From Hormiphora californensis (taxonomy: Eukaryota; Animalia; Ctenophora): a DNA stretch of 64,000 nucleotides. The position numbers and the translations under genes were made by a program. Where the stretch lies: positions 1,364,001 through 1,428,000 of the forward strand of contig CM035353.1 in assembly GCA_020137815.1 (NCBI GenBank). The letters run 5' to 3'. The notes beneath the pieces are model-generated. The model saw only the letters and a list, made by a program, of their open reading frames with translations, had not been told where the DNA came from and did not search any database. Positions 7,826-64,000 of this stretch are shown here, one piece after another (the first letter of the stretch is position 1; the number at the start of each line of letters is the position of its first letter).

Positions 7826-11272
<3,447 letters not shown>

Positions 11273-12766: not shown

Positions 12767-13941
<1,175 letters not shown>

Positions 13942-15099
13942 CTACTTAAGGTAGTTCAAGGTTAGTTACAAAGCTTGGTGTATTATAGTATGTTGTATAC
14001 GCGAACAGAATCCCCCAAAATCAATGACGTTTGTTATTACTGATCTGCGTATACAAATATTGAATGCAAATACAATTATTCATATCCCGCTTTTAGACCT
14101 AGATGCATTTTAAAGTCTGAAAACCTGGGACGGTCCTCAATCGAAGAACGCCGAACCAACAAAAAGGGGCCCTTTTGTTACACAACTTTTTCAACAAGCG
14201 CCCTAAAGGGAAATTCAAATCTGCTACGAACCCCAAATTTTGGAGGGCGCAAGGGTGAAGTAAACCCGGGAAGATGAATGAAGAAACGTGTCAGGGTTGC
14301 CTTGGGCTGCCGAACCAAGAACAAACTCACGGGGGCCGTGAGAGGGGCCCAATTGGCAACGTTTTGGCCCCGGAAGCCGGATAAGGCAGCTTTTAAAAGG
14401 AAAAAGGGAAATTACGAAAGATTCAGGCAGCTTAAAAATCTTGTTTTTGTGGGCAAGTTTTTAGTGGAGTGAAAGAAAGGAGGAAGTGGTTGGGGGTTTT
14501 TGGGGGGGGGGGGGGTGGGGGGGTTTAGGCCTTGAAATTCGCCCAGTACGTGACACCCAAACCCTTGGGGTTTTGGCGAAACCAGGGGAATCCAGGAAGC
14601 GAACGCCCCCAAAACAACCAGGGTTCGTCGGGAACGGGTCCCATCTTTCCACGCGAATTGGGCCTTATTTTGGTAAGAATTTCTTACGATGTAAAAGGGG
14701 TTTTGGAAAACGGCGCAACCATGGGGTTTCTGGGGATGGCCACGCCCGAAAGGAAAATTTTAAAACGAACCGGGACCAAATTTTGGTTTTTCGGTTTGGC
14801 CCACGGGTTTTTGAAATTTTTATTTTGGGCCCAAAGGGAACCCGAGGGGGCCCCCTGTGGTGGGTCGGGGTAAAAATAGCAAACAAAGTTGAATTTTAAC
14901 TAAAAGGGAATGAGTTTTGGTTTTATTCTTTTCCATTTTGGCCCCGCAAGGGGACGTTGCGGGCCCAGCTTAAAAACTTATACTGACGAACCGGTTTTTA
15001 GGTTAGGGCTAAAGAGGGTGCTTTAAGGGGGTGGGTTGGGGGTTTAAATTTAAATAAATTTTGGGAAACCCCAAAAACGGTTGGATGGTTTGGGGTAGA

Positions 15100-18000
15100 G
15101 ATTAAGTGAATTCAACTTTTTTGAACAACGGAAAGGTAACAGGGCCTCCAAACACCAATCGAAACGGCGCCCAGGGGGGCCCGGTCATGCGGGACAGAAA
15201 GGGAAGAAGAGTTGGGGATTTGACTGAGGGTTCCCCTCCAGGGAAAAACTCGAGGACGATGTATCCCCCCATTGTAAATTGGAGGACCTTTGAAATTTTT
15301 CCTTTTGGGGGCACAGGCAAAGTAACCTTCACATTTTACCAAACTTAAAAACTAAATCAGAAATTAAAAAAATTGAGATCGAGGGAAACCATTAACTACT
15401 TGCCTTTTTTAACAAGAATAGAAAATATGAAAAATAACCCATTTGCCAAAATTTGGCAGTAAGGGGGCATGGTTTTATTTAATCCCCCTTTACTGTACTT
15501 TTGATTGGGTTAACAAATTCCAATTGGGCTGAGGAAACCGGGGGAATGAACCCGACACCAGGTCGGTGGGTTTCTCCCATTCCACCATCGGGAGACGTTT
15601 GCACAGTCGAAACACAGGGGGGGAGAGGAGGGAAAATAACGGAAAAATTCCCATAGAAGGGGGCCCATGCTATAAGCCATGGGGGGGAAAAAAAAGAATG
15701 ATTTGGGGGCGAAAGGGCGCCACGGTTTACTAGTTAAGACAGGCTGCCTTCCGTTTTTTGTGTGTTGTCCCAGTTGAAATGAGTTGAGTCTTTTCTATTT
15801 TCCATGGAAGGAGAAGAGAGGAGAGAGGAACGGGGTTGAGAAATTGTGAGATACGGAACATTGCCGTCTGGGCCCCCAAACTGGGTTAAAAGCTATTAGT
15901 TTAATATCGAAAGTGAACTACCCGTCTATCAGGACCAAAAGGACTGTACTCCACAGGTCAGCGGGGGCTCCTATTAAAAGGGAACCATAAAGAAAAATTC
16001 ATTTATAGTCTCCGATCGATACTTATTCAGTGATATTATCTTATCCCAAGATTGCACAGATGGGTTCCGTAGAATTCGTCCATAGTAAGCCTCTATGACC
16101 TCCAAAGTGCTCCGTTTTATCGATCTTACCAATGAAAAACTTGAGGCCTTCGTTCCAAATCTGACCATTTCCGAAGACATCCTCAAACTCCCTCAGAAGG
16201 ATCACTGGAAAGAGATGCGAAGACGACTGAAACGATGATAATACCACACGATAAAGCCAAGGGATTCTTCAGGCTTATACCTGAGTTAGCACGATGGAGT
16301 CCAGCCCTCACACCTCTCACTCGAAACATGCTCAAGATGGTCATGGCCATGACTGACACTGCACTTCCCAGTAGTGTTGACAATACCCAGAGCGTCAGCA
16401 GTACCTGCTAGCGAGCCAGTAAGTTCTGTCTCTCGCAGTAGTCTTCCCTGTAAAGCATCAGACAAATGCAATCGCCAGAAGATAGACACCAGTTAGAAGA
16501 TCTCCGACTGCTAATGGTTGCTACAAGCAGTCGGTTTTCAAGACAAACCTGACTTTCTACTGTTTGTAGTTCAAGAGAAACCTTTCCCAACGTCCACAAG
16601 TTCAATCCAATGGCGAGAGATCCTAATATAAACGCGCTAGTTTTTAAATGGTATCCTTGTAGAATTTCTTTTCCACACCTATCGTTGCACTCATCTGATA
16701 AGTCCATACAGTTGGGAACCCCGTCGCACATCTTGTACAGAGGAAAGTATAATTGATGACTCTCACCTTCTGAGGTTTTGCACCGGAAGTTATTTTCACA
16801 TTTTTCCTCATCGCTGCCATCTCCACAGTCATCGATCAGGTTGCAGACTTTCTCAAACGGTAGACACTTATTATTATCGCACTCGAAGATCTCCTGCCCG
16901 AAAGATTGTTTCTTTGTCGTCACAAATGTTAACACATTTTCGTTGGAAACTGTGTACAATCTGTTTTTGATCTCAGCCGGACACGAATCTAGTTTGAGCG
17001 GACTTTTCGATATTGGACAAGTTTCACTACAGACACCCAGACACGACAGATAAACGTATACCTCGCCAAAAGCGTAAAGACAGGAAGCTTTTTTAGGAGC
17101 TGTCACCGTGGTCTCACGGTCAATACCAAAGATTTTAGAGTTCCGCATCTTAGACGAGCTAAATTCAGAACAATCTCCTACCAGATTTATCACGTTTTCA
17201 AGTCCAGGTAAACACTGGCCTATGTACTTGTTCCAAACAGTGTCCTGGACGGCCTTGTGGAACACCTCGGAGACCAGTCTCCTACAGACGGCGTTCTCGT
17301 TCCCACACGTGTCTACACCATCACAAAGAAGATTGGATGGTATGATGCTCCGGGGACCAAACTTGCAGTGAAACACGTCTTTGCACGTGGCGCTGTCCAC
17401 TACAAACCTTCGAAATTTACCTGTTCCGCAAGTGGGCCATAGGTCCAGGATCTCATCTTCCCCGTCAACACAGTCCTCAACGCCATCCCCCAGCCAATAG
17501 ATGGGAAACGATGGAGAATACAGGTCAGGCCGGAATTTCCTCTTGCATCCAGTGCCAGTCATCCACTTGCAGTGGAGTTCGTCATGACCGTTAGGGCAAT
17601 CGCGGGTGTCATCACAAACCTGGTGCTTGTGGATTCTACAGGTAGATGTAACATCCACACAGAGGTTATCCAGCTTATCATCACAGAGCCCCTGACTTAG
17701 TCCACCACACACCATCACCTTGGAGACGGTGGACATGTACCCTCCTATGGGACAGAAAAGGGCCACCCTGGCCGGATCGGAGCAGTTAGTCTGTTCCATG
17801 AAGTCGAGACAGTGTGGAGAATAAAAGTACCCCTTTGATTCGATAGTTACAGAGTCACTGAGGTCCCATCTCCACCTGTGGTTCACTCGGATGGTGGTAC
17901 ATCGGGTGAAGTTAAAGATTGGAACTTGATACAAATCACCCACATAGTTGATTGTACACGTTGCCACGTCTGGCTGATCGTGTGCACATGATCTCATGTC

Positions 18001-18615
18001 ACCAGACACCCCGCAGATATTCTTATAATAAAAGTTGAAAACACAGGCTAGTATGGGGGAGGTCCACCCGTTTCTCTCACTGCACAGGTACCCGTATGTG
18101 AACTCACCACAGTGTATTTCATCCTCACACGTGATTGTATCACATACACCGTCACACGCCTGCGTCACGCTGTCACACACACCCGTGAAGTTGTTGCCCC
18201 TGCACTCGTCACCAAATGCCGGATTGCAAATGTCCATGATGGCCCGGGGGAAGAAAGCGTGAGGTCCCGCCTTACAGGCTGCCACCCCACAGAGGCCATC
18301 CATCTCGGATGTTACACTGCCCACCCCTGGCAGGTAGCCACACATCTCGTAATGATACGGATCATGGGGGCATGTCGTGTTGAAGGTCCACCTGTCCGAT
18401 TTTAGGGCATAGTAGTAATCTTTAGAGTTGTGGCACTGAAACAAGGTGAGGCCGTCAACGTAGTCTGTGTTGGAGAACTGGTGGGTACATACACGCTTTA
18501 AAAAGCCATTCAAGGGGGTGATCTTGCACTCCAGAGGGTGCAGGAAGCATTCCCCCGAAATAGCCAGTAACTGCAGAATAGTAATACCAACTGCGGTTCT
18601 CAATCCGATGGACAT
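15100..18615 (-). CDS. Intronless rhodopsin-class GPCR with multiple LDL-receptor class A repeats (GRL101/RXFP-like 7TM, no LRRs seen); 7TM part frameshifted
   Basis: 735-aa ORF with a signal peptide and repeated CDG..DC.DG.DE modules, then TM1 (AFILGSLAIGLN) and TM2-TM4 fragments across frames (GSAVSVMAMTILSMFR, IEAYYGR). The 3' boundary is approximate because the sequence degrades below ~16500. Confidence 0.75.
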
Positions 18616-20391
18616 TGTCCGCTAAAAGAATACAATATTAAAGTCAGGGTTTTTGAAGATGTCACCCGAAACTCATTAGGGTTTCAGTGACCACTATTGA
18701 GTTGTTCGTAGGCGAACGTCCATTGGGAACACTAAGGCTCCTAATAGGATTACGGCATTTGGGATGAATTTCTCATTGTCCTCTTTGATACATCCTGTAT
18801 TGTCTACTCTTGGGTGTTCAGGTCCATTGCAATCGGTCTAATTGTGGAATCACATTACCTGCATACTTAAGCAAATGCCAATGGGATTCTGTGGTGCCTT
18901 TAAATGTCCTCTTGGCTAATCAACCAAACTAATTGGTAACATTTTTACCAAAAATTTTTAGTGGCCTGTATAGAATTTGGCCCCGGGGGGATTTTCAAAT
19001 TTCCCGATAGCTTCCAAAATTAATCCCCAATGGACTATGGTAGACTACGCGACTTTTAAAATTGACACGTACTCCTGAAAGGGGAAATTTAAAACTATCT
19101 TTGGCAAATTTGGAAATTAATCCCTAGCCAAAACATATTTGGAAAAATTTCGACTCAGGAAAATTTTTTTCGAATGAATGCCATTTCTTTTAAAATTGAG
19201 AGGAAAAAAAAGAAAAGAGCAGGAGGTAAAAGGGTAAGAAGTAGAGAAAAGCGTAAAAGAGGCCCAGAACTGAAAGGAAAAACTTGGGGGACTTTTTTTG
19301 CCACCACGTAAATCCAAAGGGGAAAAGGAGAAGATTGGTAAAATGTGTGAAGCAAATTGGTACAATAATCGTGAGACAATACATAATTTGCCAAAATTCG
19401 ACCTCAGCAGCCAAGATTTTTATCTACTCCGCCCTTTCCTTTAATGAGTGACAAAGGAGCGGAGCCGAAAGATAAGGGGGAATCGAAAGAACCCAAATTT
19501 TCCGTGCAGGCACCGCTTTTTGCTTTCTTGCAACAATTTTTAGGGGGGGGGGGGGGGCCAATCCCCCTTTTTGCCCAATTATCTCAATTAGGGAAATTTA
19601 CCCACCTCTGAATTTAAATTTTCAGATTAGCGACAAAACGGAAAAGGGTTTTCTTGTTAACTAATTTTTTTTTTGGGTTTCACTGTTAAAAAAATCGACG
19701 GTGGGGCCCCCTCTTTTTGCATCATCGGGGCTTATCTTTCCATGGGGCGTTCTTCGTAAAAAAAGGACTGGTATTATCTCTGAGTTCTCATTTTCATTGG
19801 GGTGGGGGGAAATCAAAAAATCACTAATAAAGAAATGAAACGGATCCTTAATACCGCTTTCCCAGCAATCCGGATACTCAACGATTCGGTGAGGATCACA
19901 TGACCTGACTAACTTTAAGAAACATGACACTGTATCTCCTGTGGCGGTCCAATTTAACTGATCTCGGTCACATTGGAAAGTTAATCGATAGCCAAACATA
20001 ATTGGTTAAATTTTTGACCGGAAAATATTTTTTCTAGAATGAATGACCATGTTCATTCCGATAAAAAAAAGAATTTTGAGCTAGAGGTCTAAAATTTTGG
20101 TCAAGTTATTTATTTGTCTCATAGAGTAGCTGTACCAAATTTTAGCACTCCACGATATCTGGAACTATGGTAGACTTAGGGGGGACTTTTTATTGCCACA
20201 CACGTACATCAACAAATGAAAAGGAGAAGATTGGTAAACTACTGTGTGAAGCAAAATTTGGTACAATAACTCCGTGAGACAAATACATAATTTGACCAAA
20301 ATTTCAGACCTCTAGCACAAAATTTTTAATCGGAATGAACTCGCCATTTCTTTTAAAATGAGAGAGAGAAAAGAGAGAAAGAGCGAGGGAG

Positions 20392-21786: not shown

Positions 21787-24700
21787 ATGAAGCTCGGTAC
21801 AGTGTTCCCAGACTACAATGTGAAAACTACTGCAGGTAAGCTTTTCAGCTAATTCATACCCCCCTGTATCATATAATTGTCACCGAATCCACCCCAAGTT
21901 CCATGCATCCTATCCCTTGTTCTCCCCAGGTGATCTGAGTCTCCACGAGTACTGGGGCGAAGGATGGGGCATCTTTTTCACTCACCCCGCTGACTACACC
22001 CCCGTTTGTACGACAGAGCTGGCAATGGTGGAGAAAATGGCTGAGGAGTTTGCCAAGAGAAGTAATTTATTAATATAGTTTATTAAATTAGTTTATTCTG
22101 ATCCCTTAATTATTATCTGTACTGATGCCTTTGCTATTTTGAGTGCTAGTAGTTCAATATATATACTTTGTTTCACTGGCCCAATTAACCACTAACTTAG
22201 TGCACAGTGTGCACACCTAATATTACTATTTAAAAGACTTTATTTCACCACTAACCTATAGTGCACACCTAATATTTCTATTTAAAAGACTTTATTTCAC
22301 CCCTAACCTAGTGCTCACCCCCCTACAGATGTGAAGATGATTGCCCTGTCTTGTGACAGTGTAGAATCACATATTGGGTGGACGGAGGATATCAAGAAGT
22401 ATTCAGGTGGAAAGTTCTCCTACCCCATCATCGATGATACCAGCCGAACCCTTGCTGTAGAGCTGGGTAAGTTGTTGTCTCATTGCACAAACCTGTCATC
22501 TCAATTTCATCACAGCACAGTGCAGAATCCAAAACTAGATGCACTTTTGATTACTGCAGTATTCAAAAGTTGTTGTCACAAAACTGCCACGATACATGTT
22601 TGGCATTGTTTGACCAATTTGTAACAGGGATAACTTTGGTACATTACATCACCCCAACAGTAGTAATCGAAAGTGAATCTAGTTTTGGATTTTGCACAGT
22701 ATTTTCCTGGTACAAACTTCCTTTTGCACACAGACATGTCTAGAGACTGAGAGGTGATATAGTCACTCCTTGCAAAAGTGCATAGTTTTGCATTTTGTAG
22801 GCCCGTCGTTTAGTCTCATGTAACACGTCCTGAGTGAGGAATATTAATGTAATTTACTGCTCCCTCATATCACCCCCCTTCGTTCTAGAATATATTTCTC
22901 TTCCCAACAAAAGGACAGCACATCTCATATTCCTTCTTTTACAAAGGGAGTGGTGCCCCATGGTGATCTCACTCATAGTGAGCATCCAATACTCATCTTG
23001 AGTAGAACAATATGACATTGTGCATCCTCCTATAAACTTGACCTTTAGTAGCCCACTTTTTGAAATATATATTCTTGTTACTGGTACGAAATGTCCAACA
23101 GACTAACAGAGTACAGACTAACAGCCCAGAAGGGCGCCTTGCTCGACCCTCCCTCACCAACAGACTAACAGCCCAGAAGGGCGCCTTGCTCGACCCTCCC
23201 TCACCAACAGACTAACAGCCCAGAAGGGCGCCTTGCTGGACCCTCCCCCACCAACAGACTAACAGCCCAGAGGGGCGCCTTGCTGGACCCTCCCTCACCA
23301 ACAGACTAACAGCCCAGAAGGGCGCCTTGCTCGACCCTCCCTCACCAACAGACTAACAGCCCAGAAGGGCGCCTTGCTGGACCCTCCCCCACCAACAGAC
23401 TAACAGCCCAGAGGGGCGCCTTGCTGGACCCTCCCTCACCAACAGACTAACAGCCCAGAAGGGCGCCTTGCTGGACCCTCCCCCACCAACAGACTAACAA
23501 CCCAGAGGGGCGCCTTGCTGGACCCTCCCTCACCAACAGACTAACAGCCCAGAAGGGCGCCTTGCTCGACCCTCCCTCACCACGCAATGGAGGGTTAGAT
23601 CACAATACCACCACATGTCACTATTTGGACAATAGTGCCCCCCGGCCCCCAATAGTGGTTTAGATCATCGTGTCTGGGTATTATTATAATGTTAGAGCCT
23701 GAGGGGGATATATTTCCTTATTACTGAATACTGTGCATAATATACGGTGACAAACGTGTTTTATGTAGACTAGAGGCCAAAGTAGATTCTAGAATATTCT
23801 TTTATGGGTGTAAAGGTTGACGTATTGTTACCATGTCTAAATATTATTAAATAAAAAATGACTCCAAATCTTCACATCGTAGGCTCCCCAACAGGGGTTC
23901 ACGCTCGAGGTGGGGGGGGGGGGGTTCAGACCTATTTTTAATATGTTTGAGGTTTTTCCTCAAACAAAAAATTGGGGTGGAGCGGCCAATTTCGGCCATA
24001 AATTAAAATATCATAGTGTTAAAGGTTGACAAGATACCTAATATCGTCTTATTTTGATTTATCATTAATTTTCAGCATTTTTTCAGAATTTTTTGTCGGC
24101 TAGAAATATGTGCAAAATAGGGGGTCTACTGACAAATGAGTGTGCCTTTTTTTAAAATTGATAACGTAATATCTCCGGTTCCTGATGAGATACAGAAACC
24201 GTTTTGGTAGCGTTGGAAAGGTCTTATTGAGACCAATCCAACGCAACCAAGATCAAGTCTTTATCTTTTGAGGAACCGGAAACGTGAATTTCAATTTGCG
24301 AGACGCAGTGAGTGTGCCCAGTAAAACCAGTGCTGACAATATCGGTAGACCCCCTATTTCGAATTTTTTTCTAGCCGACAAAAATTCTGAAAAAATGCTG
24401 AAAATTAATGGTAAATCAAAATAAGACGATATACGAAAAGTTTTAGGTATCTTGTCAACCTTTAACCCAGTGTGTTAACCCATCTTACTGTTTCAGGAAT
24501 GTTGGATGCCGACGAGAAGGATGCTGCTGGTCTACCTCTAACTGCCCGTGCTGTCTTTATTGTCGGTAAGTCGTGCTGCTGGTCTACCTCTAACTGCCCG
24601 TGCTGTCTTTATTGTTGGTAAGTCGTGCTGCTGGTCTACCTCTTACTGCCCGGGCTGTCTTTATTGTCGGTAAGTCGTGCTGCTGGTCTACCTCTTACTG

Positions 24701-27700
24701 CCCGTGCTGTCTTTATTGTCGGTAAGTCGTGCTGCTGGTCTACCTCTTACTGCCCGGGCTGTCTTTATTGTTGGTAAGTCGTGCTGCTTGTCTACCTCTA
24801 ACTGCCCGTGCCGTCTTTATTGTCGGTAAGTCGTGCTGCTGGTCTACCTCTCACTGCCCGGGCTGTCTTTATTGTTGGTAAGTCTACCTCTAACTGCCCG
24901 GGCCGTCTTTATTGTCGGTAAGTCGTGCTGCTGGTCTACCTCTCACTGCCCGTGCCGTCTTTATTGTCGGTAAGTCGTGCTGTCACTACCTCTTACTGCC
25001 CGTGCTGTCTTTATTGTTGGTAAGTCGTGCTGCTGGTCTACCTCTTACTGCCCGTGCTGTCTTTATTGTCGGTAAGTCGTGCTGTCACTACCTCTTACTG
25101 CCCGTGCTGTCTTTATTGTTGGTAAGTCGTGCTGCTGGTCTACCTCTTACTGCCCGTGCCGTCTTTATTGTCGGTAAGTCTACCTCTTACTGCCCGTGCC
25201 GTCTTTATTGTCGGTAAGTCGTGCTGTCACTACCTCTAACTGCCCGTGCTGTCTTTATTGTCGGTAAGTCGTGCTGCTGGTCTACCTCTAACTGCCCGTG
25301 CTGTCTTTATTGTCGGTAAGTCGTGCTGCTGGTCTACCTCTAACTGCCCGTGCTGTCTTTATTGTTGGTAAGTCGTGCTGCTGGTCTACCTCTTACTGCC
25401 CGGGCTGTCTTTATTGTCGGTAAGTCGTGCTGCTGGTCTACCTCTTACTGCCCGTGCTGTCTTTATTGTCGGTAAGTCGTGCTGCTGGTCTACCTCTTAC
25501 TGCCCGGGCTGTCTTTATTGTTGGTAAGTCGTGCTGCTTGTCTACCTCTAACTGCCCGTGCCGTCTTTATTGTCGGTAAGTCGTGCTGCTGGTCTACCTC
25601 TCACTGCCCGGGCTGTCTTTATTGTTGGTAAGTCTACCTCTAACTGCCCGGGCCGTCTTTATTGTCGGTAAGTCGTGCTGCTGGTCTACCTCTCACTGCC
25701 CGTGCCGTCTTTATTGTCGGTAAGTCGTGCTGTCACTACCTCTTACTGCCCGTGCTGTCTTTATTGTTGGTAAGTCGTGCTGCTGGTCTACCTCTTACTG
25801 CCCGTGCTGTCTTTATTGTCGGTAAGTCGTGCTGTCACTACCTCTTACTGCCCGTGCTGTCTTTATTGTTGGTAAGTCGTGCTGCTGGTCTACCTCTTAC
25901 TGCCCGTGCCGTCTTTATTGTCGGTAAGTCTACCTCTTACTGCCCGTGCCGTCTTTATTGTCGGTAAGTCGTGCTGTCACTACCTCTAACTGCCCGTGCT
26001 GTCTTTATTGTCGGTAAGTCGTGCTGCTGGTCTACCTCTTACTGCCCGGGCCGTCTTTATTGTCGGTAAGTCTACCTCTAACTGCCCGGGCCGTCTTTAT
26101 TGTCGGTAAGTCGTGCAGGTCTACCTCTAACTGCCCGGGCTGTCTTTATTGTCGGTAAGTCTACCTCTAACTGCCCGGGCTGTCTTTATTGTCGGTAAGT
26201 CTACCTCTTACTGCCCGTGCCGTCTTTATTGTCGGTAAGTCTACCTCTTACTGCCCGTGCTGTCTTTATTGTCGGTAAGTCGTGCTGCTGGTCTACCTCT
26301 AACTGCCCGGGCCGTCTTTATTGTCGGTAAGTCGTGCTGCTGGTCTACCTCTTACTGCCCGGGCTGTCTTTATTGTTGGTAAGTCGTGCTGCTGGTCTAC
26401 CTCTAACTGCCCGTGCTGTCTTTATTGTTGGTAAGTCGTGCTGCTGGTCTACCTCTTACTACCCGTGCTGTCTTTATTGTCGGTAAGTCGTGCTGCTGGT
26501 CTACCTCTAACTGCCCGGGCCGTCTTTATTGTCGGTAAGTCGTGCTGCCACTACCTCTTACTGCCCGTGCTGTCTTTATTGTTGGTAAGTCGTGCTGTCA
26601 CTACCTCTTACTGCCCGTGCCGTCTTTATTGCCGGTAAGTCGTGCTGTCACTACCTCTTACTGCCCGTGCCGTCTTTATTGTCGGTAAGTCGTGCTGTCA
26701 CTACCTCTCACTGCCCGTGCCGTCTTTATTGTCGGTAAGTCGTGCTGTCACTACTGCAGGGTGTCCCATATATCCTGAGGGTCAGAATATGTTATATGGG
26801 ACACCCTGTATTTTGTTCGTGAATTATCAATTACTTAATAAACTATCGCACACTGACGTTGCATCATTGTACCGCAATGTTTATCTTGCTCATGACACAC
26901 CTCACAACTTCCTGGTTTAAAAAGCGAACAGGCTCTATATCTCTTTCTAGAAAGGGGGAGAGTCTCTCCCTTTCTAGAAATTTCTCTGAACACTACATTA
27001 TATAGACATATCTAACATACAAGGTGGGCCACGGATTGTTGGTAAGGGTTAGCGAGTTGTCCCGTCAAAACGGTGATAGTTGCGAGAATAAAAATCATGG
27101 GAGCACTCTGGATCAATTTCTTGGTAACTTTTTCCATATTTTTTTGTCAAAAATTTGAAAATTCATTTTTCATTCCTTCATTCATTTCTCGTTCATTTAT
27201 GATGTGAGCATCCTAATTTTCCATCATGGTGCTATTTTTCTTTGGCTTGAATTTATCTTTCCAATGAACACCATAAAAATGAAATTGAAGCACCAGGTCA
27301 CGTTGCAGTTGAGAAAATGCTCATGCATGATTTTGGCTCTTCCTGCGACTTTCAATGAGCTGTATCACGGCTCCCTTTTGTTCAATCTTTTTCAAAATTT
27401 GGGTGAACATTGGATAAACAAAGATCTTTGCTCACAAGAAAAATCAAGGTCAAAACTCAAAGTTCATTTTTCATTTTTGGTAGTTCATTCCACTCATTCA
27501 GGAACTAACATCCCTAAAGTCATGAAAAGTTTTGGGTTTTGTTTGGCCTATGCTCTGCAATGCCAGAGAGGTGTAGTAGCGTGTTTCCGGGCTAGTTTTT
27601 GGGTGTCCATGTGATCATGATGATACCTGACACCTTATTTGGGCCATAATTAAGAGATTTTCTCAAGTTGAAGCATGTGACTTGGGTTTTCTGTGATTGA

Positions 27701-29272
27701 TATCGTGAAACAATGTTATGGGATCCCATAGCACCCCTAAAATGATGATTAATTCAACAAAATGAGTTGATTTATTATTGAAAAGATTTAAACCGAAGAC
27801 AAACTCAACTAAACGAACAATTTCGATCATAAATCAACTCATTTTGTTGAATTAATCATCATTTTAGGGGTGCTATGGGATCCCATAACATTGTTTCACG
27901 ATATCAATCACAGAAAACCCAAGTCACATGCTTCAACTTGAGAAAATCTCTTAATTATGGCCCAAATAAGATGTCAGGTATCATCATGATCACATGGACA
28001 CCCAAAAACTAGCCCGGAAACACGCTACTACACCTCTCCGGCATTGCAGAGCATAGGCCAAACAAAACCCAAAACTTTTCATGACTTTAGGGATGTTAGT
28101 TCCTGAATGAGTGGAATGAACTACCAAAAATGAAAAATGAACTTTGAGTTTTGACCTTGATTTTTCTTGTGAGCAAAGATCTTTGTTTATCCAATGTTCA
28201 CCCAAATTTTGAAAAAGATTGAACAAAAGGGAGCCGTGATACAGCTCATTGAAAGTCGCAGGAAGAGCCAAAATCATGCATGAGCATTTTCTCAACTGCA
28301 ACGTGACCTGGTGCTTCAATTTCATTTTTATGGTGTTCATTGGAAAGATAAATTCAAGCCAAAGAAAAATAGCACCATGATGGAAAATTAGGATGCTCAC
28401 ATCATAAATGAACGAGAAATGAATGAAGGAATGAAAAATGAATTTTCAAATTTTTGACAAAAAAATATGGAAAAAGTTACCAAGAAATTGATCCAGAGTG
28501 CTCCCATGATTTTTATTCTCGCAACTATCACCGTTTTGACGGGACAACTCGCTAACCCTTACCAACAATCCGTGGCCCGTACACACGACACTATCATATA
28601 TGTTTGTGATTAAACCCCATTGGATTGCTGTTACACGCGCAGCAGCTGTGCTATAGCTGAATATGAGCATATATTCAAAATTGATCACACATAATATGCA
28701 GCGAGTATCATTTGTCTGTCTGTCTGTATCGTTAAATCTCTCGCTCTCTCTCTATCCCTCTCTCTCTCTCTCTCTCTCTCTATCCCTCTCTCTTCCAATA
28801 TCAGGACCTGACAAGAAGCTGAAACTGTCCATCCTCTACCCCGCAACCACTGGTCGAAACTTTGATGAAATCCTCCGAGTTATTGACAGTCTTCAGCTGA
28901 CTGCCTACAAAAAGGTACACACAGAAGTTTTAGGGAATACAGTTACTGGACCCAATTAGTAATACAACTTATTGGGCTATTGGGTGTGCTGCAAGAGAGT
29001 AAGAGATGCTTCGGTTAGCCATCGGTAAACTTAGTACTAATCTAATGGTAGAGTTAGAAAGATATACCTATAAACCATATTGAACCAATTGGTTACTCTC
29101 ACACCCCCCCCCCCTCCAGGTCGCCACCCCTGCTAACTGGCAGTCTGGGGGAGAGTGCATGGTCCTCCCCTCTGTTACTGGAGATGCCGCCAAGGAACTG
29201 TTCCCTGGAATGCGTGTAGAGGAACTTCCTTCCGGCAAGGGCTACATGAGGTTCACTCCCCAGCCCCAGTAG
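21787..29272 (+). CDS. PRDX6: 1-Cys peroxiredoxin (peroxiredoxin-6), 216 aa
   Basis: Exons 21787-21835, 21930-22061 ([12 protein letters not shown]), 22329-22466, 24497-24565 ([12 protein letters not shown]), 28805-28914 ([22 protein letters not shown]), 29120-29272 ([16 protein letters not shown]). Phases consistent. Confidence 0.97.
23096..23582 (+). repeat. 47-bp intronic minisatellite (~10 copies)
   Basis: AACAGACTAACAGCCCAGAAGGGCGCCTTGCTCGACCCTCCCTCACC tandem in Prdx6 intron 3. Confidence 0.92.
24023..24461. mobile_element. Non-autonomous TIR element with TTAA TSD and AGG termini (Kolobok-like)
   Basis: TTAA|AGGTTGACAAGATACCTAA...TTAGGTATCTTGTCAACCT|TTAA with ~100-bp imperfect TIRs. 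Confidence 0.7.
24522..26754 (+). repeat. Tandem array of Prdx6 exon-4 3' end plus splice donor (mainly 40/49/52-bp units, 45 GTAAGT donors)
   Basis: Unit TGCTGCTGGTCTACCTCTAACTGCCCGTGCTGTCTTTATTGTCG|GTAAGTCG. Includes a 750-bp higher-order duplication (identical ORFs at 24912 and 25662). Confidence 0.97.
27026..28578. mobile_element. Foldback element: 750-bp near-perfect inverted arms with a 53-bp spacer, in Prdx6 intron 4
   Basis: Arms 27026-27775 and 27829-28578. Mirrored 136-aa ORFs differ by one residue. GGGCC termini, flanked by GT on both sides. Confidence 0.85.
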
Positions 29273-30200: not shown

Positions 30201-33200
30201 TTACTCTTTCTTAGAGCCCAGTGTTGCCTCAATATTCTTAATTCCTTGGTCCCGTTCCTCCTTGATTTGCCTGAAAATATAATGGGTGTGTTCGGTGTTC
30301 AGCACCTCCTATTTGATTGAATTTGAAACACAACCCAACTGTTGCCAAAAATAGTTTTCACCATTTAAACCATTGCTACGAAGGCTATCCTATTTAAATT
30401 GTTTCATAATGATGTCATAACGATATACCTGATTTCAGCAAGGGCACCAGATTTAGTATTCCTGGCCCCCATCAGCTGCTCAAGGTTAGCCGTTCCCTGG
30501 TCCTTTTCGTCCTTGATATGGCGAATATCTCCAAGGAGGTCTGATTTTGTTGATTTGGCTGCGAACAGTTGTTCCACCTGACAAAGGGGTGGTGTTAAAC
30601 AAACATACCCAAAAGATCGAGATTATATAGAAACAAACAATCATTCAAAATAACTAATAAGAATTAAATTCACGCCCATGAATTCACATTTTTTCGTCCC
30701 TCCTCCTTCTCCTTTCCAATTCCCTCAATTTGAGCATGAAGAGCCGCTTGGTTGGATTTTCCTGCGATGCAACTTTCTAAATTAACTCTGTTTTGTTCTG
30801 CCTCAGCTCCCTTAGCTTCAATGTCAGCCAATAGACCTAGAAATATGGGTGGAGAAAGTTAGGGCGGGTGAAATATCAGCAATCTTATAATTCATGTTCA
30901 AAATAAATGGAGAATTTGACAAGTTTTTACATGTACCGGCTCTTGGACCTACGCCTACATATATCTAACTATATCTAATGCAAATTTGCACGGAAATGTG
31001 ACGACGTGATCCGTCAATGTGACGACGTGATCCGTCAGCGTGACGACATGATCCGTCAGTGTGACGACGTGATTCGTAGGTATCACGTATCACACGTGTT
31101 GAGAACTACTTGCGACTTGAGGGGTCACATCACATGTATAAAAGGGAGAGAAAGAGAGAAAAAGAGAGGGATCACATCACATAGCATATAGCAGACAGGC
31201 AGAGAGAAAAACAGACCCCTCGATTTGCGATCGGTACGATCGCCCCAGTTTTGCTAGTAGACTATAATAGAGTTAGAGCCGACAGTTACTCACCTTTCTT
31301 GGTGGATTGTTGTTTAATTTCCTCCGTCATCTCTTCTTTTCGTTTATGTGTAGTTGAGATTGTCTTAAATTCACGAGTCAGGTTTTCTTTGGCTTCCCTT
31401 GCCTAAAGCAAATGGAGTGCGAAAATTAAATGGGGAATGTATCAGAATTGTTGCCTATTCAGGGGCTGTCTCTGAGACCGCAAAATTCGTTGTGTGGTCC
31501 GCACAAAAGACTAGCAAATTTGGGTGGGTTGTACAAATAAGCACACTGAGCGCGCAAATGATGGAGTTTCGCCAATTTTTTTGTACTATGGGATTCACAA
31601 GACTCTCACCTACTGCTCAGTGAAAACCCGGTGGAAAACGGTTGATCACAAGCTTTGCAGTGATCTAAACCGCTGAGAACTTCATTTCATGATGTATTTC
31701 ATATTTGGTGGGGTACGGCTCTTTATTCGCATGTCACTAAAAATTGAGATAGAAACTCGAAAAAAATCGTCTCATGAGTCATCCAAAATCGTCCATTCTA
31801 CCGATCCCCGGGTTGTTTGGGGTTCCAGGCCCAACCGTCTGGGAGCCTATTGCCACATAAGTAAAAAAGCCGGTTAATTTTTTTCGACCGGGTCATTTCG
31901 CGGTCTCACCAAGTGTCACGTGATCTGAGGTGTTGAAAATTGGATTTCATGTGATTATCTGAGGCTGCAAAACGACTTTTACAAGTAAACATATGAATCT
32001 CTCTCCCTCCCACTATTTTACGTTACAATCTCACTTGTGTGTGCACAGTTACACACAGAAGAGGGGGGGGGACCTTCTACCCTTCTGCTTCACAGGACTG
32101 TGGACCAAGGGCAGTGCTGATCAAACTGTAAACATTTGCAACTAATTGATATCAAAGCAAAAATCACTCTACCCGACTAATTTCAATAGGCTGAATCACA
32201 TGAGCAACTTTTAAAGCTCTCAGAGGTCGATAAAGTGCTCTAATTGGATATAATAGGGTCTAATTGATCTAAATTACAACTTCTCCCATGAAAACGCTAT
32301 GAATTCGTATGAGGGCACTGTACCCACTGACTTGGATACCCTGATTTACATGGGCATCTTTTCTAAGCTCTCAGAGATCGAGAAAGTGCTCTAATTGGGT
32401 CCAATTGACCAAAATAGTTACCAATTTTTCCTGTAATCTCTATAAGTTCATTTTGAGACACTTACCCACTGATTTTGATACCCTGATTCACATGAACAGG
32501 GCATGAGTATCTTTTATAAGCTCATATTTGTGGAAAAAGTGCTCTAATTGAGCATAATTGGGTCTAATTGACCAGAATAATTAACATTTGAGAGGGTGCC
32601 CTCTCTCTCTCAAATCAGTGTGCTAAGTGTCTCCAAATGAACTTATGAACTTATATGAAAAGTGTTAATTATTTTGGTCAATTAATTAATTAGAGCACTT
32701 TATCCACCATTGAGAACTTGGAATAGTTGTTCATTCGAATCAGGGTATCCAAACTAACCTAGTGGGTAAAGTGCCCTCACACGAATTTATACCGTTTCTT
32801 GAGAGGAATCGTAATTTCGATCAATTAGACCCAATTATGCTCAATTAGAGCACTCTTGCCACAAAGAGCTTATAAAAGATACTCATGCCCTGTTCATGTG
32901 AATCAGGGTATCAAAATAAATGGGTAAGTGTCTCCAAATGAACTTATAGGGATTACAGGGAAAATTGGTAATTATTTTGGTCAATTGGACCCAATTATCC
33001 TCAATTAGAGAACTTTATAGATCTCTGAGAGCTTAGAAAATATGCTCATGGGAATCAGCGTATCCAAATCAGTGGCGTAAGTGCCTAATTATATCATGAT
33101 AGTGTTTTCGGGGGAGAAGTTTTAATTTAGATCAATTAGACCAAATTATACTCAATTAGAGCACTTTCTCGATCTCTGAGAGCTTAGAAAAGATGCCCAA

Positions 33201-34486
33201 TGTAAATCAGGGTATCCAAGTCAGTGGGTACAGTGCCCTCATACGAATTCATAGCGTTTTCATGGGAGAAGTTGTAATTTAGATCAATTAGACCCTATTA
33301 TAACCAATTAGAGCACTTTATCGACCTCTGAGAGCTTTAAAAAGTTGCTCATGTGATTCAGCCTATTGAAATTAGTCGGGTAGAGTGATTTTTGCTTTGA
33401 TATCAATTAGTTGCAAATGTTTACAGTTTGATCAGCACTGCCCTTGGTCCACAGTCCTGTGAAGCAGAAGGGTGGAAGGTCCCCCCCCTCTTCTGTGTGT
33501 AACTGTGCACACACAAGTGAGATTGTAACGTAAAATAGTGGGAGGGAGAGAGATTCATATGTTTACTTGTAAAAGTCGTTTTGCAGCCTCAGATAATCAC
33601 ATGAAATCCAATTTTCAACACCTCAGATCACGTGACACTTGGTGAGACCGCGAAATGACCCGGTCGAAAAAAATCAACCGGCTTTTTTACTTATGTGGCA
33701 ATAGGCTCCCAGACGGTTGAGCCTGGAACCCCAAACAAACCGGGGATCGGTAGAATGGACGATTTTGGATGACTCATGAGACGATTTTTTTCGAGTTTCT
33801 ATCTCAATTTTTAGTGACATGCGGATAAAGAGCCGTACCCCACCAAATATGAAATACACCATAAAATGAAGTACCCAGCGGTTTAGATCACTGCAAAGCT
33901 TGTGATCAACCGTTTTCCACCGGGTTTTCACTGAGCAGTAGGTGAGAGTCTTGTGAATCCCATAGTACAAAAAAATTGGCGAAACTCCATCATTTGCACG
34001 CTCAGTGTGCTTATTTGTACAACCCACCCAAATTTGCTAGTCTTTTGTGCGGACTACACAACGAATTTTGCGGTCTCAGAGACAGCCCCTGCTATTTTTT
34101 GAACAAGACAACAGAATTCTGTTGCAGACTGGGAGGTACAGATGGTTTAGTAGTAGTATAATAGTATTACTAAGTACAGGGGTAAAGGAATAGGGACAGA
34201 GGGCTTAAAGTACCTATACTATTAAAGTACTAAGCTATATTACAAATCACAGTGTCCGTACTACAAAAAATAAATATCGAAGCTACATAATATTAAGATT
34301 GAGAAGGGAGGGGCTTCGAACAAGACAATTGGAACGGGAGAAATGAAAAAATGCAAAAGAAGTTGATCCGACAAGTTACTAAAGCTACCTGTGTGCTTTT
34401 GACCTACAGCAGTAAAGGGGGAAATATAGGGGACAGATGGTTTACAGGGAAAGCGGTCAAGTTACAGTCAAACTTGTAATTATAAA

Positions 34487-34550
<64 letters not shown>

Positions 34551-37500
34551 CAGAGAGAGAGAAAGAGAGGAGAGAGAGAGAAGGATGAGATAATAGAGAG
34601 GGGGAGGGTATAGAGTGAGGTAGAGAGTATGAGTAGAGGTAATAGTAGGAAGAGGGAGGCAGAGAGATAAGAGAAATATAAGAGAGAGAGGCTGGAGAGA
34701 GGAGAGATGAGTAGGTCGAGAGAGATTGGTGTTTGTGTGTAAAGTGGATTGGATAATTTTGATATGAGCTTCTGCAGCTGTGCAAGGGTCACCCCTCAGA
34801 AGTCTGTATCAAATATCCACGGAAATTCCGTGGACCGTGGACCATGGAGCGGTATTGTGTGAGGAATTCCTGAATCCTGCCTCTCACTCTGTCAAAACAC
34901 ATGGGCCACGGAATGAAATATGGGGGTGGATTGCGTATCCCAACGGGTGTGATAACAAAAACAGTGAAGAGAATGTAATGTGAGAAGTCGTGGGGGGGTG
35001 GGGTAGATGTGGAGAGATATAGACGATAAAAGGAGGAGAGAGAACAAATCCTAATTTAGGGAACTCAATTGTTAGTGGCAAAAAGCAAGGTTGGACACGG
35101 CTACTGTGGCGGTTATGAATACCGGTATCAAACTTCCTCGTTGTATTGTTCTGGTAAGACCTTATATGGTAAGCAAAAAAAGAGGATGGCCATGAACATA
35201 CACGCAATTCTCCTAAATGATTTGTGCCTTTGTAATTACCCATATGTTCTTGTACGGCATAATTGACTATGACGTTAGAACTGCCAAGTATCAGTAGAAA
35301 CACGAACTGCATTTGCATAATTATTTAAAAGATTCATGATTCAGATTAGGTTAGCTGTTCTGAGAAAGCTCAAAAGATATGTGAGACATGCAAGATAGAG
35401 AGATAGGGAAAGTTAACATAGGAAGGACGTAATGGCTGAGTTAACTTTATTATTGTGGCTGTACCGGCTCGTTCATCCTTACAGTCTACAAAGATAGGAG
35501 ACGGGAGGCTAACGACGGCGAACCGAAGCTGCAAAATGAGAATAAACTGGGGGGTAAGGCCGAACTGGATGCAGAAAGGGGCAACGGTCTGTTTAGAAAT
35601 GGAGGATAACAGAGGGAGGAAGTAGACGAGAGGGGGGAGAATAGAGAGAGTAAGGATGAGAGTGAGAGTAGAGAGTAATAGAGAAGGGAGAGAGAGAGGG
35701 GGAGAGAGAGAAGAGAGAGGGATGGGGGGGAGAGAAAGAGAAGTAGAGAGGATGAGAGAGTAGGAGGATATAGAGAGAGTAGAGAGAGAGAGATATGAAG
35801 AGAAGAGTAGAGAGAGAAGAGATGAAAGAAAAGAAGCAATTGATAGAGTAGATAGAGTAAGATAGGGAGAGGAGAGAGAGAGAAGATGTAGAAACTGGAG
35901 AGAGAAGTGGATAGAGGGGTGGATGTTGGGAGTGGGGATGGAAGGGGGATAGAAGGGGATAGAGTGACAGAGAGGAAAGAGAGTATGGGAGGGGAGAGAG
36001 AAAAAAGGAGAGAGAGACGAGAAGTAGGTGAAGAAGAAGGGGGAGGACGGATGAAGGATGGGGGAGAAGAAGAGGGGGAGAGAGAGAAGATTGAGGGGAG
36101 AGAGAGGAGAGGAAGAGAGAGAGAGAGAGAGAAGAGTATTTGGGCGCAATCATAGTTAGAGGATAAATAGCACCAAGTGGTAGAGTCTCCTGCAATGAGG
36201 ATAGGGAACGGTCATCATAGTCTTGCTCCTGACAAAAAATTGGGTTTCATCATCCAATTAACTGCGTAGGGGCTCAAAAGCAAATTTATCAATGTTTTAT
36301 ATTTCGCTGATACGTAGGACTATCAAAAAGCAGAGTGCCAAACCACTCGCGTTGAAATTCGGCACCGCATTTTGAAATTGGCCAGTTTTAATTTCGAGGA
36401 GCAGGAGGAAGAGCGAAATTCCAGCGACACCGCGACGGAAGTTGGTTGGGAGTTATCCATCATGAATCTAAGGCATGTTGCCAGGAGTTGAAGTGGTGCA
36501 GGTAATCAAATACAATAAACACTTCTGTGCTAAAAGACATTATAAAAGATATGAGAAGTATAAATGCCTTAGCCTTTAGGGTCAGGACGTCATGTCTAAG
36601 ACTACTATATGGACTCGGTATATGTGCTGTAAGTTGGGGGCAGGTAGGGGCTTGAGCCGTGCGCTACGAACAACTATCCTCTTTCAGCATATAAGGTAGT
36701 ACACAAACTAGCATGTCGTTCCAAAGCAGTTTATCAGTTGTCAATATTCAAGAGGGCAACCATGCTATAGTAGGTGGTACAGTGCGTGGGGTTGGTGGGT
36801 GTGCACAACCATGCATGAATGTATTCGTGTATTCTAATAGATAAAAAGCCTAGCAGAGTCTGAGATACGCTGACAAAGTATCTAGGGAATTAGGAAATTG
36901 GTGACGTTCATTGTTTCACATCTATGTATGTAGAGCCTGGAAAGGCCATTCAAATAGAAAAAAAACTAAGTCCCGGAGATCAGGAGATAGACAAAAGTGC
37001 GACCCCAATGCTTGAGTAACGGAAAGAGGAGAGGGTCGCAGAGAATCATGGAACGGTATTCTGTGTTAGTGGTGCCTAAAACCCAGTTGGGAGGGGTCCG
37101 GACGTAAAATAGAACAGAGACAAAAGGAAGGACACGATTTGAGCAGGCTACAAGACAATGGCCCTGCGACAGATCTTTTTACTTTTTCCACGCTTGTGGA
37201 TGGAAACAAACAGGGAGAGAGACGGACCGGAGATTTTACACAACAGTTACCCATATTAAAGAGGGGGGGATGGGCGGGACGCGCCACAGTGCCAGGATGG
37301 GTGTTCATATAAGTTTCTATTTGGTAGCAGGTTGTGGGTCGTGGCCTGCTATACGGGGAATCCCTCAACTTGATTTGATTCGAGTGCAAAACCAGAATTG
37401 AAACGCGGTCTAGGTATTTTGGACACAGGGGTGGGTGTTGCAGGGAGCAATAGCGAGGAAGTGTAATATGAAGTGCAAACCGCGTGTGTAGAGTGTTTAA

Positions 37501-40500
37501 GTGTCCAGGGGAATCCGAGAGGGCGGTAGAGATATAGCAGAGGTCGGACTGCTAGTCCCTAGTAGACCGCTGCTGCGGGTCCAAGTGCCGATAAGTCGCG
37601 TTTATCGGTGATGGAATCAAATACTCAGGTAACGATTTGGTAGGCGATGGTGAGCTCTAAGGTCACTTTACTTAATGGATATTTAACTATGTAGTCGGAA
37701 ATACTGAATTGTGGTAGAGATTGAAGTGATCCTCAAGCAAACCTTTTTCTCCACTGCTATGCAGATGAAGGGGTACACCTCTTCATCTTCAGCTACAGTT
37801 TGACTGAGGATGGGATGGTTTTGAGAGAACCCCCTAGAAATTAGGTTTCCGTAGCTAGCAATACTAAGGCCGTGAATAGTACCAGGACGAATTGAATATT
37901 ATATTATAGGATCGTACCCGTTGCTTTATAATGGCTGCAGCCAATAGCTGGTGCTAAGAGCAACAATTAGGTTTCAAGGGGATAGGGGGAGGTTCAAAGG
38001 GACAATAGAAATAGTTCACTTGGCAAATAGGAAGTGAAGTCTATCAGGATGCATGCGATAGGCAAGGAGAGAGAAAAGAGAGAGACAATATTTATGAAGA
38101 CTAGGGGGAAGGGTATAGCTAGGGGAGCTAGAGGGAGATTGAGAGGAATCGAAACACAGGAAATGATAGACAATACAGGCCGGCGTGTATAATGTAGAGT
38201 GCAACTGATGCAAAGAGTGAATTACAAGTACCATGGCTACTGAAGTCAACAAAAAGTGAATGGGTTAGAAGTTAATTTCAAATAAAAAAGAGCATTCAAT
38301 ATACCCAAGAAGGATTGGAATGGCTGCCAATACAAATTTACCATAAACTGTTTCTAAGCCACCCTCACTGTATGAGACCAAAACGAAATGTAAAAAAGTA
38401 GGCTAAGAAGTCGAAAGACCCCAGGTGGTGGGGCGAAGTTCACTATGAAATTCTTTACGTGTATGTTGGTGTCCACGTGGAAGATCGTTCGGGCAACACA
38501 ACAAATCACAAGGTATTTAGGAAATCGTTATTTGACACATTTTTGTAAGAATGTGGAACACGTCAAATGGAATTGAGAAACTCGGGTGCCAAGTAATAAA
38601 AGGGTGATAGAAGAAACAATAACTGAGATCGTATTTTCAATGGCGACCAAAGCGTCAAGTGACGAAAAGGCGCGGTGTAAGATTATATTCACATTTCCTT
38701 TTTACCTAGCGCTATATTGCCTGCATTGCCGCCCTCTTGTGTCAACATCTGACGAGCTGACCCGATCGATTAGAAATAGAACAAATACCGGGTTTCCTTC
38801 CTAATACGAACGTGGGAGTGGCATGCCTAACCAGCTGCTTGGAATAAGAAGAAAATTACTACCTCAAAGATAGAGGGACGCTGAATCTAGATTGAAAGAG
38901 ATATGACATTGGTGCTGAAACACCTTTGTCGACAGCTCTTGGTATGGCCCGGTTCACCCGTATTAATTATTAGGTTTAAAGTACTACTTAATTAATTATT
39001 ACGTATAATTACCTGGCCGGCCATGGGTGTGGAAACTATCACACGAGGACATCAAGTGTGTTATCCTTCACGGCGGAAGGGTAAAAAGCCATACAGCCGA
39101 CCAACAGACTCCTTCAGACGAACATCTCCCAAGTTACTCTCCTTTTGCGTTTTGCGGCGACGTTCACTACTCGAGGTCGTTCATACGCTGCACCGTGCAT
39201 TACTATTGCCTCGTGGGTGTGTCGAGGTTGATGAGGGTGGTCGGGGGCCTAGGCCAACCTGTAGGTCCTCTTTGGAGTACGAGCGCGCATGGGTATTGAG
39301 GGTGCAAGATAGGAGGGACCATGTGGGGAGGGGGCTGTGATGAAAGGAGGTGGACAGTATAGGGAGGGGCTGCACCACGTGGCGAACGGGAACTGGGAGG
39401 GGTTGGGGCATTACTATTTGCCTGGTAGCTGAATGAGGTGTGGGTGTGTTAAGGGGGGGCCTAGGACCCCCTGGTGGTATGGGGCCGCGGTGGGGGGGAA
39501 GGAGGTAGAGGGGGGGGTTGGAAGAGGGGTGAAAGTGGGTTGGGGGAACCAGGCGGGCGTGTAGTGAGGGTTGGGGGGGGCCTCAAGCCTTATATTAGGT
39601 GTCTCGTTTGGAGGTACAGGGTCCGCGCCCTTTGGGAATGGGGGGAAGTCTCATCTCATATCGGGCTGCGGCTGTTTCCCTCGGCACTCTCTGCAAAAAC
39701 GCAGCTCCCAACTGATCTCTATCTTTCTATTTCCCACCTTACCAGTTACATTTCGTCATGGGGACACATTATCATACCGTGGAGTTTTTTCTTTGCTCTG
39801 TTAATTCTCTGGGTCATGAATCTGTATAGGGGGACACAATGGAAAGCACGTCTAATTGTGAGGCGCGGCGCTGCGGCTATCTGCACGTGCGGTATTGATT
39901 AATTCAGAAGTATTGCTGAGGGAGACAATCAGTTACGTTTAATGGGTGCTGTCCTCGTCTCTTTAATCTCGCGCACGGTAGTGGGATAATATTAGCCGCG
40001 GCGCGGCGCAGTGCTGCACGTGTGCTGGTCTTCCTAGATAGAAATGTCCAGATAGAAACTCCAGATAGGAATTCCAAATACGAGAATGTTTAATGACGCC
40101 TGTATTACCCTTGTTCTGCAGGTCCATCTCGTCTGGCCTTAATGTCTGTCAACCATGATGGAAAGTAGAGTGGAAAAAATGAGAAATTGATCCGGAATCG
40201 TGTATGTTGTTAAAAATTATTGTGCAAGAGATTATAGATGAAGATCAGTCAAAGTTGGTTATAAAGCCGCGTTATGACGGTGTTGATCAGTTTCTGGATG
40301 ACCAGTGGACGATGTGGGAGTTTTCCTACACTTTCGTTTTCCCCTCCCCCTCTTGCGCTCCTTCCCTATCGCAGCGCTCTGCATAGGCTCCAACTCTTTT
40401 TTTCGTCCTTTTGAATCCAGCGTCGACCCAATGGTTAGTTTCAGATATACGCTTGCCTGCTTTGTTGTCCTAAGGTTTGGCGGTTGGGACAGGTGCACCC

Positions 40501-43500: not shown

Positions 43501-44086
43501 CTGCTATATAGGGGATCCCTCAACTTGATTTGATTCGAGGCAAAACCAGAATTGAACGCGGCTAGGTATTTGGACACAGGGTGGGTGCAGCAATGCGAGG
43601 AAGTGATATTATGCACCGCGTGTAATTTTAATGCCAGGGATCAGAGAGCGAGAGAGAAGAAAAATCGAGCTGTCCTATAACCACTCTGCGGTCCACAGTG
43701 CATATCCGTTATCCGCATGGGAATCGAACTCAGTAACGATGTACGGTGGCTCTAATCACTTTACTAATGAATGCATCAAACTGAATTGTACAATATGAAA
43801 TTCTCAGCAAACTCTCACCAAGAGTCTCAGAACAGTACAGTTCTGTCAGAGCATTGGCCTGACAGGTACAGTTTACTATGGATGGTTTACCCAGAAATTA
43901 ATAACCGTAGACAATATTATAGCTAGGAATAACCAGAGAATAATATTTATATAGCGACCTGCTTTATATGGCCGACCATGCTGCTGCACATAGTTCAAAG
44001 GTTCAAAGGAACAAAGAAACTGTTCACTGGCAAATAAGAGTGCAGAGAGCAAGAGAGAGAGAGAGCAAGAGAGACAAATAGAGAGA

Positions 44087-44130
<44 letters not shown>

Positions 44131-44144
44131 AAGAGAGAGAGAGA

Positions 44145-44206
<62 letters not shown>

Positions 44207-51058: not shown

Positions 51059-63860
<12,802 letters not shown>

Positions 63861-63866
<6 letters not shown>

Positions 63867-64000
63867 CTGTAAGAGAAACGTAGAGCTTAGTTTTAGAATA
63901 TCTGTAAGAGAAACATAGAGCTTAGTTTTAGAATATCTGTAAGAGAAACATAGAGCTTAGTTTTAGAATATCTGTAAGAGAAACATAGAGCTTAGTTTTA
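63861..64000 (-). repeat. 35-bp array of glycogen synthase acceptor plus first exon bases (runs off the window)
   Basis: AAAACTAAGCTCTATGTTTCTCTTACAG|ATATTCT, with 4 acceptors visible including the used one. Confidence 0.9.

Follow-up and report, generated by a model that had tools for sequence, protein, structure and literature searches.

How does a gene come to carry the end of one of its own exons, splice donor included, 45 times in a row, and how is a normal messenger still obtained from it? The question is raised by Prdx6, a 1-Cys peroxiredoxin gene of Hormiphora californensis (Ctenophora), which lies in a 64,000-nt window (GCA_020137815.1, CM035353.1, positions 1,364,001-1,428,000, forward strand), this being the whole stretch of DNA that was analysed. 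The answer that we favour, with a probability of about 60%, is that the array is a minisatellite of the kind named 'mirage' in amphioxus, in which the end of exon 4 and its donor are present 45 times, that the RNAs found are spliced at the first of these donors, and that the copies probably multiplied through unequal exchange in which other alleles of the working exon, i.e. of the authentic exon 4, took part.

Prdx6 has six exons (Table 1) and an open product of 216 amino acids when exon 4 stops at donor 24566. Three of the five exon pieces scanned match AhpC-TSA or 1-cysPrx_C, and the presence of both domains together with the conserved Arg identifies a 1-Cys peroxiredoxin (Prdx6), in agreement with an earlier interpretation made by a model from the letters alone (hereafter the sequence-only reading), in which the repeated exon had been called Prdx6 exon 4. 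P0001, a protein of 216 residues from a 947-bp contig, differs from the donor-1 product at three residues (213/216 identical) and passes directly from exon 4 into exon 5, without an extra unit. Its closest full-length named relative is a peroxiredoxin-6-like protein of Bolinopsis microptera (77%), other named animals being at 69% or below. Among the 135 homologues counted (from a set of 141 proteins, six of them unanchored), Arg124, which falls within the 12-residue peptide of the repeated exon end, is invariant (135/135), and Gly118 is kept in 134. A metagenome scan with P0001 returned five loci of 54-75% identity, none from the source organism, and was not used. A 52-bp duplication at 22209-22310, containing the likely branch site of intron 2, ends 18 nt before exon 3.

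What is repeated in the array is the last 33-44 bases of exon 4 and the donor; units begin at 24522 or later and are without the exon 4 acceptor. GTAAGT is intact in 45 of the 45 donors, from 24566 to 26735, exactly the number that the sequence-only reading had counted. By length, the 44 units that follow the exon end fall into 25 of 52 bp, 10 of 50 bp, 8 of 40 bp and a lone one of 49 bp (unit 33), the latter being a 52-bp type minus one GCT codon. The array has a Tandem Repeats Finder (TRF) score of 2975 and its unit is absent from the rest of the window. Alignment of the junctions revealed microhomologies of 3-5 nt between intron start and exon, TGCTG for the 52-bp, CTAC for the 50-bp and GTC for the 40-bp units. 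The microhomologies themselves and the lengths ascribed to TGCTG and GTC had thus been read correctly from the letters, and the 49 bp ascribed to CTAC was off by one (50 bp in 10 units). The 40-bp type can equally be explained by a 12-bp deletion within an existing longer unit. The final four units are of the 50-bp type and a strong hairpin follows them (Table 1); in the repeat units themselves no special fold was found with DNA parameters (z -0.86). The 750-bp higher-order duplication announced earlier also held, 24522-25289 being identical to 25272-26039. Tandem mutually exclusive exons were considered and rejected, because the units are not whole exons with their own acceptor and branch site; a single AG has newly arisen, in unit 33.

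Of all the features of this array, the rarity of non-synonymous changes tells the most; the sequence-only reading had noted it without giving an explanation. Recurrent alleles number five, at four sites (24540 A/T/C, 24549, 24552 and 24564), each in 5-24 units, and all five are synonymous in the exon frame versus 38 of 114 possible changes (P ~0.004). The rare events are different, three of four being non-synonymous. Units 6 and 21 share a G>C residue change (a single event that was then duplicated), unit 40 has A>T (26461) and unit 43 has V>A (26632), the same short list that had been drawn up from the letters. The units are mosaic, with 13 four-site haplotypes and with all four combinations even between sites 3 bp apart. 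None of the 43 pairs of neighbouring units is identical, which argues against plain slippage, and the distance between neighbours is 2.0 versus 1.98 after shuffling (30 units, duplicated block removed). The CpG formed by the first two bases of the Arg codon is invariant across all units.

The same bias is seen in a second gene of the window, encoding glycogen synthase (minus strand, 12 exons in one open frame, Pfam match). In its 7-unit acceptor array, all five variant sites in the first 33 nt are synonymous (P ~0.001), and six of six copies have CTA where the working exon has CTG, again a silent difference. The exon concerned has arrays on both sides, since it lies between this array and the 8-copy donor-end array. 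Across the two genes, to which the count is confined, six of the nine arrays touch splice regions versus 1.42 expected (P 8e-4), under post hoc thresholds (period >=10, >=3 copies, TRF score >=100), an array being counted if it overlapped an exon or, within an intron, its final 50 nt or initial 10 nt. The process looks general in the genome rather than specific to Prdx6.

Is the working exon itself variable? Seven of the 22 sequencing runs were compared on short stretches around exon 4, leaving out the array itself. X1 and X5 are DNA samples of organism A (X5 from another study, X1 possibly the assembly's own source), X17 comes from organism B, a relative, and X8 and X12 are RNA runs (metatranscriptome, one study). 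The differences in exon 4 listed across X5, X12 and X17 (24519, 24525, 24528, 24532, 24534 and 24540) are synonymous in six of six cases; the exon of the relative has T at 24540, the commonest allele of the array, and X5 holds both alleles at this site. That samples differ from one another at synonymous sites of the working exon makes it likely that the units were built via exchange with other alleles. In X17, intron 3, exon 4 and the donor lie on a single contig of 1060 nt, which then repeats 24547-24572; the joint is at a microhomology of 9 nt and constitutes a fourth junction type, and the tendency to duplicate the exon 4 donor is thus common to the relative, although a large uniform array was not seen in that contig. 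No exon 4 contigs turned up in X7 and X9, which is not proof of absence, and X1 is without cover at 24472-24519 and carries no weight there. Small duplications in the branch-site region upstream of exon 4 (24462-24489) differ among samples, with at least three forms in X5 and another in X17. A whole-exon duplication in S2 (exon 4 depths of 433 and 248 versus 64-87 upstream) is not claimed, because at least three intron-3 ends fit a pooled sample equally well and because no donor-to-acceptor joint was among the contigs listed.

Normal mRNA is still produced from authentic donor 1. In both RNA runs compared (X8 and X12), exons 3, 4 and 5 follow one another in a contig without an extra unit, a qualitative result that leaves room for minor forms. 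The sequence-only reading had proposed counting the junctions to exon 5 from each donor: the contigs found join at donor 1 only, evidence of presence alone, as rare forms are lost from contigs, truncated mRNAs would be hidden by decay and the animals sampled may or may not carry the array. Its statement that an added unit would shift the frame is correct in that no unit length is divisible by 3, and incomplete in that a pair of 52- and 50-bp units would be in frame, yet a TAA would truncate the product from donor 3 on. The predicted products are a frameshifted protein of 148 amino acids from donor 2 and one of 147 amino acids from donors 3-45, through the TAA in the second donor copy; the frameshifted mRNAs that this would imply were not seen in the RNA contigs. 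The copies beyond donor 1 are likely to be intronic and untranslated.

Put together, a model can be outlined in which the first duplications would have been seeded where the start of the intron and the exon share a short microhomology, in the case of the 50-bp type possibly at the base of the hairpin, after which out-of-register crossover or conversion between homologues would add and reshuffle units. The exon ends donated in this way would already have been filtered by selection, and the common variants would be silent for this reason. As in human F7, the spliceosome would pick the donor furthest upstream, and the truncated mRNAs that the others would yield on the rare occasions of their use are likely degraded. 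Several observations weigh against this scenario. Exchange between alleles was never directly observed. Only one of the four variable array sites (24540) varies in a working-type exon, the other three lying where differences near piece ends were counted and not located, and 24528 C, 24532 T and 24534 C, known from other samples, are absent from every unit of the window that covers them, perhaps because their sites are close to the junction, where exchange would happen less often. Likeness to unit 1 shows no gradient along the array (rho 0.03), and an ordering of the units as a polar 'fossil record' starting from unit 1 was discarded after this test. Two of the four variant sites are C>T at CpG, so that recurrent mutation is possible, and the use of donor 1 is read from two metatranscriptome contigs of one study, in which rare or decayed forms are invisible.

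In the main rival explanation the exchange runs in the reverse direction, with selection acting on the untranslated copies: crossover or conversion would often put an internal unit first, arrays with amino-acid-changing units would be purged, and the copies would be spare exon ends. The silent bias shared by two arrays, the strong constraint on the copied codons (Gly118 and Arg124), the intactness of all 45 donors and the restriction of non-synonymous changes to single events would suit this explanation. We consider it unlikely as the principal process, since it requires high rates of back-transfer and since a common array allele in the exon of the relative is more simply accounted for by transfer from exon to array, although both directions may operate. 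Plain slippage, regulated alternative donors and an artefact are less likely. Repeated independent slippage, invoked by the sequence-only reading, does fit the way in which the junctions of the 52- and 50-bp units arose. Extended to the whole array, it would mean replication slippage or template switching on a single chromosome, favoured by the hairpin, the variants being new and their silent look a matter of chance or of CpG bias. The 3-5 nt microhomologies, the CTAC jump point 1 nt before a hairpin of z -6.05, the type of the last four units and the two sites with CpG transitions are all in accord with such a process, but it leaves array growth unexplained, with 0/43 identical neighbours and no likeness between them, and it is rendered improbable by P values of 0.004 or less in each of two independent arrays and by the CpG of the Arg codon, which does not vary in any unit.

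That the donors are alternatives, regulated so as to tune the level of Prdx6 via transcript decay or to yield a truncated protein of 147-148 amino acids, seems very improbable. GTAAGT is kept in all 45 donors, the stop met with each alternative is over 100 nt upstream of the final junction, and the contigs are unable to exclude minor forms. However, products of donor 1 were the only ones found, the authentic site is used in published mirages and in F7 (PMC3087553, PMC3902484, PMC1557585), silent variants in the exon frame would be left unexplained, and the similar arrays at many nearby splice sites suggest a general mutational process. Hardly credible is the notion that the mixing of haplotypes during assembly produced the array or its variation. 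The window does have noisy stretches, among them 36200-42700, an indel-rich copy (~74% identical) of the region that follows, the 750-bp block is exact and variants confined to one unit could be errors; an artefact limited to the 750-bp block is a less remote prospect, albeit a doubtful one. Against this, both DNA samples of organism A that were compared contain many unit contigs. X5, an independent sample, has contigs spanning the 52-bp junction at a depth of 3190, single loose-end contigs with junctions of the 50- and 40-bp types and, at 24540, both alleles, and X1 carries the unit with the G>C change at a depth of 235 (listed for X1, not X5). Depths in X5 (64-87 in three contigs over the end of intron 3, 682 summed across the unique exon part) are not copy numbers, and the sample may be pooled. 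In addition, the units have clean lengths and show none of the homopolymer-type indels that mark the noisy stretches. Unequal exchange with working-exon alleles remains the explanation that we prefer.

Table 1. Coordinates of Prdx6, its donor array and other features, numbered from the first letter of the window
Feature	Position	Strand	Basis or remark
Prdx6 exon 1 (ATG)	21787-21835	+	Gene model; matches P0001
Prdx6 exon 2, part of AhpC-TSA domain	21930-22061	+	Gene model, domain scan
Prdx6 exon 3	22329-22466	+	Gene model, domain scan; 3' end spliced to exon 4 in RNA contigs
Prdx6 exon 4, 69 nt, phase 1-1, encodes Arg124	24497-24565	+	Gene model, homologue alignment
Prdx6 exon 5	28805-28914	+	Gene model; matched by loose ends of RNA contigs
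Prdx6 exon 6, 1-cysPrx_C and stop	29120-29272	+	Gene model, domain scan
Minisatellite: exon end and 44 repeat units, 45 donors, 23 distinct units	24522-26754	+	TRF, unit alignment
Donor 1 (GTAAGT), sole donor seen in use	24566-24571	+	RNA contigs X8 and X12; P0001
Exact second copy of 24522-25289, 750-bp period, 15 units	25272-26039	+	Self-comparison
Last donor and intron start supplying the GTC, TGCTG and CTAC microhomologies	26735-26754	+	Junction alignment
Strong hairpin, 17-bp stem, z -6.05	26756-26809	.	Begins 1 nt past CTAC jump point of 50-bp units
Miniature inverted-repeat transposable element (MITE)-like inverted-repeat element	24018-24466	.	Ends ~30 nt 5' of exon 4 acceptor; many similar contigs in DNA runs
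Foldback element in intron 4, 758-nt arms, 99% complementary (1.55 kb)	27026-28578	.	
Glycogen synthase acceptor array, 56-bp x 7	57865-58249	-	All 7 units encode the same 12-residue peptide
Donor-end array of the same glycogen synthase exon, 8 copies	57131-57789	-	33-nt exon part invariant; one copy with GT>CT donor
Glycogen synthase array, 35-bp unit abutting acceptor	58633-58780	-	
Glycogen synthase acceptor array, 12-bp unit with branch-site-like CTAAC, 68 copies	60304-61141	-	
Glycogen synthase acceptor array, 35-bp unit with AG	63861-64000	-	Cut by window end
~10 acceptor-like copies before exon (at 9743) weakly like dynein light intermediate chain	9736-10290	-	E 0.0009, below Pfam cut-off

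How does this array compare with known systems? The closest are the amphioxus 'mirage' minisatellites described for Adh3, the globins BflGb6 and BflGb9, troponin C and PGBD5 (PMC3087553, PMC3902484). Like them, the Prdx6 array consists of tandem copies across an exon-intron boundary with the splice signals kept, its units of 40-52 bp are within the 10-160 bp reported (PMC3087553), normal splicing is retained, the host is a highly heterozygous marine animal, and donor and acceptor ends are both affected in the genome. It has those defining features of mirages that were open to examination and is therefore a new case, a large example of a published type of exon-boundary repeat. Unlike them, it is found in a ctenophore, has 45 copies versus 2-6 in the globin examples, and combines four interleaved unit lengths with a 750-bp higher-order block. 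BflGb6 shows local homogenisation, whereas Prdx6 neighbours are no more alike. In the BflGb6 alignment, many differences between copies are by eye at third positions and some are non-synonymous, and copies of haplotype 1 carry silent alleles of the working exon of haplotype 2 (PMC3087553 supplement 4). The words 'synonymous' and 'silent' are absent from the main text of PMC3087553, where a silent bias is not discussed and where the mechanism of mirage formation is called unclear. Somatic instability has been reported for the Adh3 mirage.

In human F7, a 37-bp variable number of tandem repeats (VNTR) in intron 7, with 5-9 copies and one unit type, served to test a scanning rule in mammalian cells (PMC1557585). 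As in Prdx6, its first monomer spans the exon-intron junction, the downstream donors are identical and the most upstream donor alone is used; unlike in F7, where the rule was tested in cells, donor choice in Prdx6 is read from contigs and P0001. The 31-bp VNTR of human CBS crosses an exon-intron boundary and has a donor in each unit. Duplication of sequence bearing splice signals is also at the heart of the intron gain by tandem duplication proposed by Rogers, as described in PMC3087553, but no new intron or exon has arisen here and, apart from the AG of unit 33, the units have no usable acceptor. Another ctenophore has 3.2% heterozygosity and raised intron indels (PMC8527503), and donor-copy arrays are not mentioned in the available parts of that paper or of PMC10078293. 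In searches whose coverage did not extend to most subscription journals or to the original Adh3 paper, no literature was found that deals with mirages in ctenophores or with a silent bias of arrays of this type; relative to the literature found, the array is new in its phylum and its size, in mixing several unit types and in having variants that are silent and mosaic.

Other repeats and oddities of the window can be briefly listed. On the minus strand, arrays at 48080-48278, 47378-47469 and 46317-46890, judged by eye, end 0-35 nt upstream of apparent acceptors; a single exon piece was scanned there and gave no Pfam match. Foldback elements with arms 98-99% complementary are found at 31460-34091 and ~53440-54270 (the latter by eye) in addition to that of Prdx6 intron 4. 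A 31-bp unit forms two long arrays, inverted relative to each other (1482-2509 and 3964-6208), that surround 1.4 kb, possibly one transposon with internal repeats, and a 30-bp repeat at 49073-49472 is coding-like (Thr/Ser-rich on the minus strand). Between a Rho-like gene (~12800-13950, minus strand) and Prdx6 sits a long cysteine-rich, apparently intronless coding stretch (~16000-18620, minus strand), with repeats that by eye resemble those of the low-density lipoprotein receptor. Finally, 36200-42700, the indel-rich copy (of 42600-48000), and other, homopolymer-distorted stretches at ~14100-15900 and 18900-19900 are likely unpolished long-read remnants.

These findings extend mirages to a ctenophore, and at high density, considering the splice-region arrays of just two genes. 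Silent, mosaic variants provide a direct handle on mirage formation, and an array of 45 donors is a natural test of the most-upstream-donor rule in an early-branching animal. There are practical consequences too, since silent-only differences in such copies are not to be taken as proof of translation and since such arrays will inflate exon depth and single-nucleotide polymorphism calls. A bolder and tentative idea, which is possible rather than probable, is that, in highly polymorphic marine animals, the edge of the exon is where likeness between homologues ends, and that repair or recombination from the conserved exon, on meeting dissimilar intron sequence, re-primes at a microhomology, depositing the exon end and splice site of the other allele, in which case mirages would be a by-product of heterozygosity across the genome, with feedback into the exon. 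If this were true, mirages would archive the silent alleles of a population, return them to the exon and put untranslated DNA under protein-level selection, and no better ground for a test would be available than the present ctenophore genome, where two genes alone hold six or more such arrays.

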